A DNA stretch of 47,751 nucleotides from a virus (Duplodnaviria > Heunggongvirae > Uroviricota > Caudoviricetes). The notes under the pieces are model-generated. The model was not told the origin of the DNA. It made no database searches and worked only from the letters and a program-made list of their open reading frames with translations. Positions 8,585 through 30,177 of this stretch are shown one piece after another (the stretch's first letter is position 1; each line of letters opens with the position of its first letter). The position numbers and the translations under genes were made by a program. The stretch lies in IMG/VR virus record IMGVR_UViG_2909267149_000003; one strand, written 5' to 3'.

Positions 8585-9225
8585 TTGTCGGTATACCTCT
8601 CTCGTTTGCTCAGTTGTTCAGGAATATGGTGCAGCAGCTCGCCGTCACCACAGTAAATGGCTGCGTGATTCGGCACCGATGAACCAAAACAGCACAGCAG
8701 GATATCGCCCGCCTGTGCAGAGGACAGGGGCACCCGATAAAAGCCGGAGGCCTCCATATTGTCCAGGTAAAGATTCTGGCCGTTACGCCACCAGTCATCC
8801 CCGCGATGAAAATCCGGCATCTCAATTCCCGCCAGATGGTATGCATCCCGGAACAGCGTGTAACAGTCCGTCACCCCGTGCTCAAAGCGCCGCCCGGTGA
8901 GATGCGGCACACAGCGGAATTTATGAATCTCACCCCGGCAGACCAGCCACCACGGCAAATCACTCTGCACCTGCAGCCGCCGGTCAGCCTCACTCAGCCA
9001 GGGCAGACCACCGGGGTGGCTGTGGACCAGCGCCACAATCTCACCCTGCATCTCTGCCCGCAGCCAGTCCTCCGGCGACATCCGGAAATACTCCTCCGGC
9101 TCAGCGGAGATATTCACGCAGGGAAAATATCTTTCCCCTTCCGGCGTTCTCACCACGAAGCCGCACGACTCCGCTAGCGCACATCGCCGGGCGTGCGCCA
9201 GAATCGCTGATTCTGTCTGTGTCAT
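8482..9225 (-). CDS. K: tail assembly protein K (MPN/JAMM motif plus NlpC/P60-like region)
   Basis: 247-aa ORF with HSHPGG...SEAD JAMM-like motif and a Cys/His hydrolase region; lambda K position. Overlaps I, so the true 3' boundary or start may differ. Confidence 0.8.
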   Translation of the reverse strand: MTQTESAILAHARRCALAESCGFVVRTPEGERYFPCVNISAEPEEYFRMSPEDWLRAEMQGEIVALVHSHPGGLPWLSEADRRLQVQSDLPWWLVCRGEIHKFRCVPHLTGRRFEHGVTDCYTLFRDAYHLAGIEMPDFHRGDDWWRNGQNLYLDNMEASGFYRVPLSSAQAGDILLCCFGSSVPNHAAIYCGDGELLHHIPEQLSKRERYTDKWQRRTHSLWRHRAWRASAFTGIYNDLAAVSTFV

Positions 9226-16617: not shown

Positions 16618-17012
16618 TATCCCCCCCTCACAACCCTGACTTGTGAGCGACTAAGTCCGTACGGTTTCAGCAGTGCTATCGCAAGCTGTAAATCGGGTTC
16701 AAGCAATGCAGTGCTGTTTGCTGGCAACTCAGAAAATGATTTCGATACACTGACCCCGTCAGCCGACACGGCTTTACTGATAACAACGCCAGAATCATTT
16801 TTCTGCTGAAACAACTTACCGAATGAGGCAATTCTGGCTGCATATGCTCCCGCAAGTTTTACCTCTTCCGGAATACGGGATGGGTTAATTTTCAGGTTGA
16901 AGCCATTAAGCCAGGCATTAGCCATTAAAACAGCTTTATTTTTAGCGTTCTCACTCGTCCAGGCGTTCCCAAACGCATTATCAACGTCATCACAGGTCAC
17001 GTAAGTGATCAT
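16617..17012 (-). CDS. head-tail connector protein (putative)
   Basis: 131 aa, first gene after the capsid gene block; AGGAG RBS ahead of the ATG at 17012. Confidence 0.5.
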   Translation of the reverse strand: MITYVTCDDVDNAFGNAWTSENAKNKAVLMANAWLNGFNLKINPSRIPEEVKLAGAYAARIASFGKLFQQKNDSGVVISKAVSADGVSVSKSFSELPANSTALLEPDLQLAIALLKPYGLSRSQVRVVRGG

Positions 17013-27862: not shown

Positions 27863-28342
27863 TTACTTTAAACACTGTTCGGTTATGTATTGCTGAGCAC
27901 CTTCAAGTTGGGCCTGCATCATTACCAGTCGTTCCCGGAGGGTGAAATAATCCCGTTCAGCGGTGTCTGCCAGTCGGGGGGAGGCTGCATTATCCACGCC
28001 GGAGGCGGTGGTGGCTTCACGCACTGACTGACAGACTGCTTTGATGTGCAACCGACGACGACCAGCGGCAACATCATCACGCAGAGCATCATTTTCAGCT
28101 TTCGCATCAGCTAACTCCTTCGTGTATTTTGCATCGAGCGCAGCAACATCACGCTGACGCATCTGCATGTCAGTAATTGCCGCGTTCGCCAGCTTCAGTT
28201 CTCTGGCATTTTTGTCGCGCTGCTCTTTGTAGGCGGTGGCGTTATCACGGTAATGATTAACAGCCCATGACAGGCAGACGATGATGCAGATAACCAGAGC
28301 ATAAATAATCGCGGCGACTCTGCTCACTGATCTATCCCCCAA
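27863..28342 (-). CDS. i-spanin Rz
   Basis: 159 aa, N-terminal TM anchor then coiled coil; overlaps the endolysin 3' end; contains the embedded Rz1 frame. Confidence 0.85.
27922..28107 (-). CDS. o-spanin Rz1 (embedded lipoprotein)
   Basis: 61 aa in the +1 frame inside Rz; lipobox VVGC and proline-rich mature region ([15 protein letters not shown]). Confidence 0.8.
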
Positions 28343-28857
28343 CAGGCTAATGCGCTTTCCTGGTCACGACGAATAACCTGTCCATAGCAGTTATTTGAAC
28401 GTATGCGGCAATCGCGCCCACCATCTTTTATCCACCAGCGAATCGCCTCGCATGCACCCTTACGATCACCGGCATTCAGCCGCTTATAAAACGTCGACGG
28501 GAAACACTTACCGGGGCCAATGTTATAGGGACAAAATGACGCTATACCCGCTTTCTGTGGTTCGGTCAGTGGTACTTTAATATTGCGCTCCACCCATGCC
28601 AGCGCCTTATCACGTTCAATAGCGTTAACCTGGTCGCATTTTTCCTTCGACAGCCTCATTCCCGGTATGACGGGCTTACCATCCACCATTGTGGCACCAC
28701 GACAGATGGTCCATATACCGGAACCATCGCGGTATGCCGTTGTGTGGTTACCTTCTTTTTCATCCAGAAACTGGTCGAGAATATCAGGCGCAGGCGCACC
28801 GACGGCAATCAGTGCCAGAACGGCAGCCGACAGGCCGTATCTGATTTTTGCGTTCAT
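28324..28857 (-). CDS. SAR endolysin (T4-lysozyme-type, GH24)
   Basis: 177 aa; weakly hydrophobic Gly/Ala-rich N-terminal signal-anchor-release-type segment ([16 protein letters not shown]), catalytic E...D...T spacing ([16 protein letters not shown]). Confidence 0.9.
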
Positions 28858-28962
28858 GGATATTTATCAGGATTTATCGGTTTCTGAACCCTGGATATGT
28901 TTATCTGTCCCGGCCTGTTGAATCAGGCAAGGAATAGTTAAATACAATAGAGAGGATTATTT

Positions 28963-29235
28963 ATGGACAATAGCACCATTTCTCTACAGGAGTTGCTCGA
29001 CTGCATTTCCAGGCTTCGGGATGATGTAAATGCCCTTACTGTCGCATTTTCATATCTGGCATTCTCAATTCCCAAGGAACAAATGCAACCAACACTGGCA
29101 TCGCTCCAGCTTGAATCACTCAACCCCAAATGGTCCCAGCAACAACAAAATTCTTTCAAGTGGCTGGCGGTATTACTGGAAGAAAAATATGCTGGTGAAA
29201 TTACCATTTCGGCGGAGTCTTCAGTGAACCAGTAA
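28963..29235 (+). CDS. hypothetical protein encoded antisense inside the lysis cassette
   Basis: 90 aa; GAGAGGA RBS 7 nt before the ATG; possible sigma70-like promoter (TTGAAT...TTAAAT) upstream; no signal peptide; converges on and overlaps the 3' end of the 114-aa gene. Confidence 0.5.
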   Translation: MDNSTISLQELLDCISRLRDDVNALTVAFSYLAFSIPKEQMQPTLASLQLESLNPKWSQQQQNSFKWLAVLLEEKYAGEITISAESSVNQ

Positions 29236-29545
29236 TTCTTCCCGGCAGTTTTCCTTTGTAGGTTATCCACACACCCTGCGCCTCTAAAATTATGGGGCGC
29301 TTTTCCGGTGACTGCTCATCCCCTTCACATAACCCGGCAGCAACATCCAGGAAGACCTGTCTGATGCTCCTTCTGGCTGCTGCCTCATAAAACTCCAGCG
29401 CGGCACCTTCAACACGGTCCAGCGAGATGTCCAGGTCTAAAATTTCACCGTCAAAGCGTTTTTTGTCCCGTAACGCTAAAGTTACCGTAACTTTATTCTC
29501 AAAATTGCGGATCCCTTTCACAATCAGTTCATAGTTTTGAGTCAT
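29201..29545 (-). CDS. hypothetical protein between pinholin and endolysin
   Basis: 114 aa; GGAGAG RBS, starts 5 nt after the holin stop; no membrane segments; function not recognisable. Confidence 0.55.
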   Translation of the reverse strand: MTQNYELIVKGIRNFENKVTVTLALRDKKRFDGEILDLDISLDRVEGAALEFYEAAARRSIRQVFLDVAAGLCEGDEQSPEKRPIILEAQGVWITYKGKLPGRITGSLKTPPKW

Positions 29546-29549
29546 TGAA

Positions 29550-29765
29550 TTACTCTCCCCGTGCAGCCTTACGCTTATCTTCTTTAATCTTGAAATAAAG
29601 ATTTGTCAGATACGTCAACAGGCCAAACACCAGACTACCCAGCACACCTATTGCTGCCCACTGTGAGGGCGTGACTCTATCGAGCAACTGTAAAAACCAG
29701 TAGCCAGCACTGCCTGCGGAGGTGCCATAGGCGACACCTGTTGTTAACTTATCCATGGATTTCAT
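29550..29765 (-). CDS. pinholin (phage 21 S-type) with dual-start motif
   Basis: 71 aa [71 protein letters not shown], near-identical in pattern to S21; Met1/Met4 dual start; two TM segments. Confidence 0.9.
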
Positions 29766-30104
29766 AACCCCCACCTCGCAGATGCGGGCGCTGTGTAATG
29801 GAAACAAAAAATGGCCACCAGCGGCCCGTAAAAAACACCCCGTCAAAAGCACCGGCATCCGCAGATGCCCTTTGCGTGGCGTGATTTGATGCGCGCCAGG
29901 TGTGGCGCAAAGAAATGAAATAAGACTTATCGAAAATTAAGGTTAATTTGATGATTTAAACCACTTCTGAAGCTTAGTAGTATGAACATGTCCCCAGAAG
30001 GGGCCAATACTTATTATTCTTCATGGACTTTGTCCCGCGGTCTTAATCCGACGACCGCGCTACTTTTCACCCTCTCGCAAATTGCTATCTAAAGGACGTT
30101 GTCC

Positions 30105-30137
30105 CACGAGTATTCCTGTATGCTCGTGTCTTTTTTT
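30105..30137 (+). terminator. plus-strand hairpin plus T-run (putative terminator)
   Basis: CACGAG-12 nt loop-CTCGTG followed by TCTTTTTTT; forms a face-to-face pair with the minus-strand terminator 20 bp away. Confidence 0.35.
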
Positions 30138-30152
30138 GTCCTGAGAAAGGAA

Positions 30153-30177
30153 TAAAAAAAACCGCCAGATATGGCGG
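30153..30177 (-). terminator. rho-independent terminator downstream of the tRNA pair
   Basis: Minus-strand CCGCCA-UAUC-UGGCGG hairpin followed by 8 U (plus-strand A-run 30153-30161). Confidence 0.6.

Follow-up and report, generated by a model that had tools for sequence, protein, structure and literature searches.

A reversed 90-aa gene and the YdfR tail between pinholin and endolysin of a Rac-type prophage: a probable member of a class of reversed small-gene morons

Results

Gene organization between the pinholin and the endolysin

The window, which is the whole 47,751-nt stretch of DNA analysed here, is a Rac-type Escherichia coli prophage that carries intR, recET, the RalA and sok RNAs, and trkG. 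Several complete E. coli chromosomes match its positions 28800-29800 at 100% identity. The flanking lysis genes all lie on the minus strand (Table 1), and RefSeq names the pinholin of the window 'phage lysis protein EssD'. The pinholin stop and the endolysin start are separated by 692 bp, which are filled by a 114-aa ORF and a 90-aa ORF. The latter is reversed relative to the flanking genes and convergent with the former, and the 3' ends of the two ORFs overlap by 35 bp (29201-29235). An earlier reading made from the sequence alone (hereafter the sequence-only reading) had described a gap of about 690 bp with convergent genes of 114 and 90 aa that overlap by about 35 bp, and all of its coordinates hold. 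Neither protein has a transmembrane segment or a signal peptide.

Table 1 Features of the lysis region in the window
Feature	Position	Strand	Evidence or remark
S21-type pinholin (essD-like), 71 aa, dual-start MKSM motif	29550..29765	-	PF04971 4.8e-35; phrog_9876/20 holin
114-aa ORF (YdfR)	29201..29545	-	whole gene, late-operon strand
YdfR/DUF1327 core, residues 1-84	29294..29545	-	PF07041; phrog_406 2.5e-67
YdfR C-terminal tail, residues 85-114, ...VWITYKGKLPGRITGSLKTPPKW	29201..29293	-	overlaps the 3' end of the reversed gene
90-aa ORF, family phrog_2411	28963..29235	+	reversed relative to the lysis operon
Shadow ORF, 110 aa, opposite the 90-aa gene	28938..29270	-	no family match
Shine-Dalgarno GAGAGGA of the 90-aa gene	28950..28956	+	AGGA core kept in all clades
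Conserved TACAAT	28943-28948	+	kept in E. coli, E. albertii and Shigella
Hairpin GCCTG-TTGAAT-CAGGC	28913-28928	+	kept in the leader copy of the window
-10-like TATGTT (candidate)	28896-28901	+	by homology with the leader class
-35-like TTATCG (candidate)	28874-28879	+	by homology with the leader class; N16 spacing to TATGTT
Putative eroded moron promoter/leader copy	28874..28954	+	weak R1 match; sequence shared with canonical copies
SAR endolysin, R21-type lysozyme	28324..28857	-	PF00959 1.3e-24; phrog_7
Rz spanin	27863..28342	-	ORF call; RefSeq annotation 'lysis protein'
Rz1, embedded in Rz	27922..28107	-	starts with a lipoprotein signal (20 protein letters not shown)

The 114-aa protein matches PF07041 over residues 1-112 with 141.8 bits (cut-off 25; E = 8e-42), and its gene starts 4 nt past the holin stop. 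Over the whole protein it shares 64% identity with K-12 YdfR, most of it within residues 1-75. The AlphaFold2 (AF2) model of the protein consists of three strands and a long helix, with a pLDDT of 70-90 for residues 1-70. The C-terminal tail is not present in K-12 YdfR, and phage Perceval has another tail past residue ~84. RefSeq annotates the pair of proteins as 'YdfR family protein' and 'hypothetical protein'. Binding to RNase E has recently been reported for the orphan K-12 protein YdfR, the overproduction of which did not slow growth (PMC13232886).

Coding strand and conservation of the 90-aa gene

The match of the 90-aa protein to PHROG 2411 spans all of its residues (1-90 of 90; 198 bits, E = 3.1e-59). 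This family carries no assigned function, and both RefSeq accessions of the protein (WP_000370551 and WP_000370546) are named 'hypothetical protein'. The dN/dS of the plus-strand frame is 0.19-0.36 between clades whose DNA diverges by up to 12-14%. As a means of choosing the coding strand, dN/dS was rejected; it is equally low in the antisense 110-aa frame, since the third codon positions of the 90-aa and 110-aa frames coincide. The integrity of the ORFs across clades places the gene on the plus strand. The 90-aa frame is open in every clade and intact in 31 of 34 distinct DNA variants, the premature stops in the other three all being singletons, whereas entire clades, among them the commonest (60 loci), have stop codons within the 110-aa shadow ORF, which is not a gene. 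AGGATT(A/G)TTTATG is invariant in the E. coli, E. albertii, and Shigella clades, and the sequence further upstream is variable. The 90-aa ORF is a real gene, and both it and the 114-aa ORF are under purifying selection. With the matches to PF07041 and phrog_2411, these results bear out the sequence-only reading in its claims of two real genes, one of them antisense to the lysis operon, and of a ribosome-binding site belonging to the 90-aa gene. Its impression of a cargo insertion was right as well.

A protein search with the 90-aa protein yielded 64 clusters of relatives, and those with a source name come nearly all from Escherichia and Shigella. The AF2 model (pLDDT 81.5) has helices at residues 8-34, 38-52, and 59-76, and the protein is predicted to be a soluble three-helix bundle. 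Foldseek found no match to this model at E <= 0.001 in the PDB and BFVD, as expected for a generic three-helix bundle, and the protein has no match in Pfam, NCBIfam, PADLOC, or the PDB sequences.

The difference in GC content is modest (0.445 in the 90-aa gene, 0.478 in ydfR, 0.517 in R, and 0.371 in the upstream spacer). A scan of 28300-30300 with the sigma-70 consensus (at least 9 of 12 positions, 16-18 nt spacing) gave no site; neither the candidate TTATCG-N16-TATGTT nor TACAAT passes it, and the possible promoter that had been proposed for the 90-aa gene thus found no support there. No site behind the 90-aa gene passes a terminator scan, and the region past the gene has only a 7-bp hairpin followed by UUUU (~29279-29306; fold z-score -1.3). 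The RNA folds of the window flanks are not significantly stable (z about -1.3 to -1.4).

Frequency of the locus and exchange at the 3' junction of ydfR

Among 5,426 complete E. coli genomes, S21-like holin DNA was found at 16,907 places in 5,165 genomes, ydfR-core DNA at 8,601 places in 4,347 genomes, and DNA of the 90-aa gene at 1,353 places in 1,220 genomes (22%). Places with ydfR-like DNA are thus about half as many as those with an S21-type holin, and the sequence-only reading erred for E. coli in its premise that such cassettes are contiguous as a rule. Its description of the interval as an unusual insert does not stand either, because ydfR is a standard companion of S21, as in the essQ-ydfR-rrrQ order of K-12 Qin. 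The locus occurs in about a fifth of the complete E. coli genomes, and the same Rac cassette with the 90-aa gene is also found in E. coli B derivatives. It is common and already annotated, and neither gene is an oddity.

A comparison of lysis cassettes for presence and absence of the two genes, as the sequence-only reading had proposed, revealed three variants: S-R (H-19B and many Stx1a-converting phages), S-ydfR-R (PhiR40_1 and K-12 Qin), and S-ydfR-orf90-R (the window and phage vB_EcoS-783R2). Relative to PhiR40_1, the 90-aa gene forms a clean indel of ~285 bp, from the last ydfR codons to ~60 bp short of the R start; relative to K-12 Qin, the indel is larger. PhiR40_1, which has no 90-aa gene, retains a scar of the promoter region.

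Residues 1-75 are common to all forms of YdfR, which diverge afterwards. The K-12 protein (103 aa) has a short unrelated C-terminus and no reversed gene. The 114-aa protein of the window (...ITGSLKTPPKW) is accompanied by the reversed 90-aa gene of phrog_2411, and proteins of 176-183 aa (...TPP and ~65 more residues) are accompanied by a reversed 86-aa gene of phrog_2572, whose cassette has a strong intrinsic terminator. The 104-aa protein of phage Perceval, which diverges past residue ~84, faces an unannotated reversed ORF of 79 aa at exactly the S21-ydfR-R site of the window. In E. coli phages, at least three alternative reversed genes therefore occupy the 3' junction of ydfR, and since each comes with its own YdfR tail, the tail and the reversed gene are exchanged together. 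Homology of the 90-aa protein with the 86-aa protein, or with the C-terminal extension of the 176-aa YdfR, was detected neither by BLASTP nor by hhalign. YdfR proteins of 116 aa (...ITGSLKTPPESQP) form by far the largest clusters in the protein search; they have kept the tail and lost the reversed gene. Together with the three singleton nonsense alleles, these forms show that the small gene is dispensable. YdfR tails without a small gene exist, and so do small genes without a called ydfR.

Distant relatives and their convergent partners

A profile search of 1.84 billion representative proteins identified relatives of the 90-aa protein at 26-56% identity, and the distant genes match phrog_2411 at E values of 1e-17 to 1e-33. 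A scan of viral sequences with one divergent protein found nothing, and a profile scan of genome contigs with a narrow alignment gave 3 loci. In a metagenomic phage (L263/L264), the distant copy separates gpM from gpL, and in a Yersinia massiliensis prophage (L268) it separates gpI from gpJ. Another copy adjoins terminase genes (L271), and one in Citrobacter (L270) lies upstream of a lambda-type holin that is accompanied by a CHAP endolysin; three others (L267, L275, and L277) are stand-alone and chromosomal. In all four phage contexts, the phrog_2411 gene is reversed relative to its neighbours and convergent with a late-strand ORF of 62-238 aa. The phrog_2411 pair is thus found in lysis, tail, and head modules.

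The N-terminal parts of these convergent partners are unrelated, and their C-termini share the motif of the window YdfR. The motif is (R/K/Q)(I/L)(T/F)G(S/D)(L/I)xxP, with (R/K)ITGSLxxP as the form of the window YdfR, and partners ending in it occur in Citrobacter, Yersinia, and two metagenomic phages. The C-termini are YKGKLPGRITGSLKTPP in the window YdfR, IEGKIRNEKITGSLRVP in the Citrobacter partner, ELYSEKITGSLFAP in the Yersinia partner, IKGNIFSDQIFGDLKKPP in the L263 partner, and IKGGQLRYKRLTGDILIP in the L271 partner. The motif is encoded by ATT ACT GGT TCA CTG in the window and by ATT ACG GGA TCG TTA in Yersinia, and these synonymous differences indicate that conservation acts on the protein.

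A conserved leader upstream of the reversed small genes

Most copies of the distant phrog_2411 genes are preceded by a conserved element of ~100 nt. It consists, in order, of CCTGG, a -10-like TAnnnT, TCAGCC, a hairpin whose stem varies and whose loop is of the GGUGGGA type, the hairpin AGAGG[GAUGGCUGAUUA]CCUCU, AAGGA, and the start codon. Across the class, the three specified bases of this TAnnnT hexamer are invariant or nearly so. Collected with one exact 17-nt loop pattern, copies of the leader were found in at least 120 viral contigs. Nearly all of these contigs have the full leader architecture, and at least 60 different small ORFs of 63-100 aa lie behind it.

In 56 diverse copies, 96.5% of cells are paired, and the first hairpin (P2) shows compensatory changes in five of its eight pairs. 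The covariation score of 0.223 exceeds those of shuffled sets (0.137; none of 500 reach the observed score) and of slid partners (0.03-0.07). U.G pairs, which are frequent, are possible on the small-gene strand alone. Judged from pairing and covariation, the leader is a structured RNA with covarying helices that is read on the small-gene strand. TCAGCC could also pair with GGCUGA of the second loop (P1), forming a candidate pseudoknot; the 17-nt search pattern fixes this loop and hides any P1 covariation. The leader matches no Rfam 15 family at E <= 1, and a literature search with the leader sequences found no paper containing them. Literature searches with the accessions of the 90-aa protein and with HK022 'srb' found nothing relevant.

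Ten cargo proteins sampled behind the leader all belong to PHROG families without known function, and one of them is DUF1883. In 51 of 63 distinct cassettes, a convergent ORF of at least 50 aa ends within -60 to +25 nt of the stop of the small ORF, compared with 26% at random positions. Of the 51 cassettes with both flanks visible, 45 have a small gene whose closest large ORFs, to the left and to the right, are encoded on the other strand.

The R1 covariance model of the leader scored 107 bits (E = 2.5e-25) in HK022, 97 bits (9.7e-23) in ES18, 55 bits (1.9e-12) in Perceval at the window's own site, 48 bits (8.4e-10) in Citrobacter L270, and 19 bits (0.013) in the E. coli 86-aa cassette (L179). 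The match in the window (28878-28954) reaches 12 bits with E = 0.71 and is not significant alone. Weak matches of 9-12 bits lie at the equivalent place and strand in three E. coli/E. albertii loci (L173, L144, and L166). By eye, the window leader shares TTTCTGAACCCTGGATATGTT with canonical copies such as L365. It has AAGGAATAGTTAAATAC where the class has the GGGATGGCTGATTACC loop, and the conserved GGCTGA loop is missing. The shared TTTCTGAACCCTGGATATGTT, the kept hairpin, and the lost GGCUGA loop point to an eroded relative, so that membership of the window leader in the class is suggestive rather than proven.

Discussion

We consider that the interval probably consists of a late gene, the core of YdfR, and a modular moron cassette of ~420 bp, whose small gene would be expressed in the lysogen and would have a target other than lysis. 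The DUF1327 core is the usual travelling companion of the S21 pinholin. The cassette (~28870-29293) would comprise the tail grafted onto YdfR, the reversed 90-aa gene, and the promoter/leader of that gene, and probably belongs to a group of reversed small-gene morons that is widespread among the lambdoid phages of Enterobacterales. While the late operon is silent in the lysogen, a sigma-70-type promoter of its own would drive the 90-aa gene against it; synthesis of YdfR with its tail would depend on the late transcript alone, and because the genes converge, the two states of expression would exclude one another. The small protein might act via its cognate partner tail or on a target unrelated to lysis, and presumably not on the holin or the endolysin. 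Co-inheritance of the small gene and the tail suggests that their products act on each other. Of the three functions that the sequence-only reading had offered, a lysogeny-expressed moron fits best. The layout is that of the annotated morons of HK022 and ES18, and a putative decayed leader copy is present, while expression in the lysogen is the part that we infer.

A role in lysis is suggested by the position of the pair, which might tune the triggering of the pinholin or the release of the SAR endolysin. The ydfR gene begins 4 nt past the S21 stop, stays with S21 despite a different endolysin set (L177/L178), and is carried by about half of the S21 loci. However, DUF1327 partners and phrog_2411 also occur in tail and head modules (ES18 gp24/gp25, L263, L268, and L271), the dual start of S21 already supplies an antiholin, neither protein has a transmembrane segment or a signal peptide, and many functional cassettes, such as that of H-19B, work without both genes. 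The proposed lysis-timing regulator is likewise disfavoured, since homologous pairs lie between tail genes, beside terminase genes, and in one instance ahead of an unrelated holin of the lambda type. The link of the locus to lysis is probably only positional, and we regard a lysis accessory function as very unlikely. The reversed transcript could instead act as RNA, damping leaky expression of ydfR and S in the lysogen by antisense pairing or transcriptional interference, with the protein being secondary. The purifying selection on the 90-aa protein and its conservation down to 26-35% identity in distant members indicate that the protein matters, and the length of the overlap varies widely; a function at the RNA level therefore seems improbable. 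Decay is the explanation to which we give the least credence. The eroded leader, the nonsense and frameshifted alleles, and the defective state of Rac in many strains would fit a functionless remnant in the Rac prophage, but dN/dS is well below 1 across clades 12% apart in DNA, E. coli, E. albertii, and Shigella have all retained the frame, the Shine-Dalgarno sequence, and TACAAT, and the gene is present in 1,220 of 5,426 genomes.

Prophage defence deserves more weight, although we still consider it unlikely. A small protein made in the lysogen would block phages or trigger abortive infection, and the late partner tail would neutralise it while the prophage itself grows lytically. The small genes behind the one leader are hypervariable (at least 60 distinct proteins, with all ten sampled in PHROGs that have no assigned function), each has its own partner family or tail, and the two strands would be expressed in opposite states. 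The same logic is found in BstA/aba, a prophage defence with self-immunity. On the other hand, the proteins have no PADLOC match, either element of the pair can occur alone, be it a tail with no small gene or a small gene with no called ydfR, and K-12 YdfR shows no toxicity on overproduction (PMC13232886).

Returning to the moron cassette, the locus itself is ordinary and not a new lysis function, and its interest lies in the class that it exposed. YdfR/DUF1327 is among the late-strand partners of a convergent cassette that recurs, and in HK022, ES18, and other phages the class leader stands in front of dozens of small proteins that are unrelated to each other. We found no earlier description of this paired, leader-bearing class; the moron kind itself is already known. 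More speculatively, and with considerable doubt on our part, the class may be a large undescribed set of swappable two-gene cassettes that act as lysogeny/lytic switch pairs, for example, defence with self-immunity, with the leader as a new cis-regulatory RNA. BL21/T7 Express has the Rac copy, with the locus as in NZ_CP053597 3031425-3031697, and HK022 has a canonical copy, which provide a cheap experimental handle on the moron class.

Comparison with known systems

The lambda bor gene is a classic lysogen-expressed moron, and HK97 gp15 is also a moron expressed in the lysogen according to a published account (PMC3594210). Both resemble the 90-aa gene of the window in being accessory genes in or beside the late operon with independent expression, which is putative in the window. 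Bor and gp15 are envelope proteins that act in serum resistance and superinfection exclusion, whereas the 90-aa protein is predicted to be soluble and helical and has a cognate partner. Juhala et al. (2000), as relayed in PMC3594210, define a moron as additional DNA that brings its own promoter and terminator, differs in G+C content from the genes beside it, and is expressed while the prophage is repressed. In the window, the extra DNA relative to collinear relatives is the indel of ~285 bp against PhiR40_1, and S-R cassettes have neither gene.

Convergent genes with overlapping 3' ends are also found in toxin-antitoxin systems. The txpA/ratA and bsrG/SR4 loci of Bacillus subtilis prophages are type I toxin-antitoxin loci whose convergent transcripts overlap at their 3' ends. 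The window pair shares this convergent, overlapping, prophage-borne arrangement, but both of its partners are soluble proteins under selection, and a small hydrophobic toxin is absent. A type II toxin-antitoxin system does not fit the pair; the genes are convergent and not operonic, there is no toxin-antitoxin Pfam domain, and overproduction of K-12 YdfR left growth unimpaired (PMC13232886). Neither protein matches a family of PADLOC-DB 2.0 at E <= 1.

In the essQ-ydfR-rrrQ region of K-12 Qin, an S21-type holin, YdfR, and a lysozyme follow each other in the same order as in the window. Unlike the window protein, the 103-aa K-12 YdfR lacks the ITGSLKTPP tail. No reversed gene faces its gene, whose stop overlaps with the start of rrrQ.

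The closest likeness is to annotated morons of two lambdoid phages. In HK022, the leader lies upstream of gp23 ('srb protein; moron gene product gp23'), and the gene that converges on gp23 is gp22 ('gp22, moron gene product'); the pair is flanked by gpI and gpJ. ES18 has the leader upstream of gp25, annotated as a 'possible moron', and here gp24 is the convergent partner, with gpM and gpL as the flanking genes. ES18 gp24 is a DUF1327 protein, and its location in the tail genes indicates that DUF1327 is a cassette partner family and not specific to lysis. As in the window, the gp22/gp23 and gp24/gp25 pairs each have a small reversed gene between late genes and a convergent late-strand ORF, and the ES18 partner shares DUF1327 with the YdfR of the window. 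The window differs from both phages in its site, the lysis cassette between S21 and R21, in the fusion of the partner to a full DUF1327 core, in the eroded state of its putative leader, and in having no clear terminator.

A conserved leader in lambdoid phages

In lambdoid phages, the conserved leader, which is about 100 nt long and contains covarying hairpins, is found upstream of small reversed ORFs, at least 60 of them distinct. Besides HK022, ES18 and Perceval, at least 120 viral contigs (L278‒L397) were matched. A possible TCAGCC:GGCUGA pairing within the leader would form a pseudoknot. Rfam 15 holds no counterpart of the leader, and a literature search by its sequence found no paper containing it.

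In the window, the covariance model of the leader, R1, gave a weak match (14.9 bits, E 0.13) at the recT end, immediately upstream of the lar/ralR ORF. This match consists of TTCAGCC followed by the hairpin GCGGTG-TAATG-CACCGC and may be due to chance. The prophage also carries both sok and RalA antitoxin RNAs. Two tRNA genes lie upstream of the lysis cassette, and two terminator-like hairpins on opposite strands are located between these genes and the holin promoter region.

Coordinates of features in the window and compared loci
Feature	Locus	Position	Strand
Leader, HK022	L398	1792-1900	
Leader, ES18	L399	1496-1604	
Leader, Perceval	L400	872-989	
79-aa ORF, Perceval	L400	986-1225	+
86-aa reversed gene (phrog_2572)	L179	2979-3239	-
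P0198 gene	L275	3001-3279	+
110-aa ORF	window	28938-29270	-
Terminator-like hairpin	window	30105-30128	+
Terminator-like hairpin	window	30160-30179	-
tRNA-Gly(TCC), tRNA-Thr(TGT)	window	30542-30695	-
sok RNA	window	33904-34074	-
Leader-like match	window	45744-45825	+
RalA RNA	window	46017-46195	-

The 90-aa gene and its surroundings

The dN/dS of the 110-aa ORF opposite the 90-aa gene is just as low, since the third codon positions of the two fall together. This ORF is a shadow ORF rather than a gene, which cautions against choosing the strand by dN/dS alone.

P0198 is distantly related to the 90-aa protein (E 9e-5). Its gene is on a bacterial chromosome, where it is flanked by dinI and bssS, with rne a few kb away; neither leader nor partner is present at this locus.

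L177 and L178 contain, after the S21 holin gene, ydfR and the 90-aa gene, another lysis set that is unrelated to the first (Phage_holin_8, Phage_holin_3_7 and Peptidase_M15), and in L178, a Stx-encoding locus, the Shiga toxin A/B genes lie immediately upstream. In L167‒L169, the endolysin gene is succeeded by a ParE/ParD pair, and ydfR was not called.

Other cassettes occupy the ydfR junction. In Escherichia phage Perceval (OV696612.1), ydfR and the endolysin gene are separated by a 79-aa ORF that lacks annotation and has a canonical leader in front. This ORF is convergent with ydfR, whose product is 104 aa long in Perceval and has a tail unlike that of the window YdfR. In E. coli locus L179, an alternative cassette carries the 86-aa gene, accompanied by a strong intrinsic terminator. 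Since this terminator sits inside the C-terminal extension of a 176-aa YdfR, the extension may represent read-through into cassette DNA.
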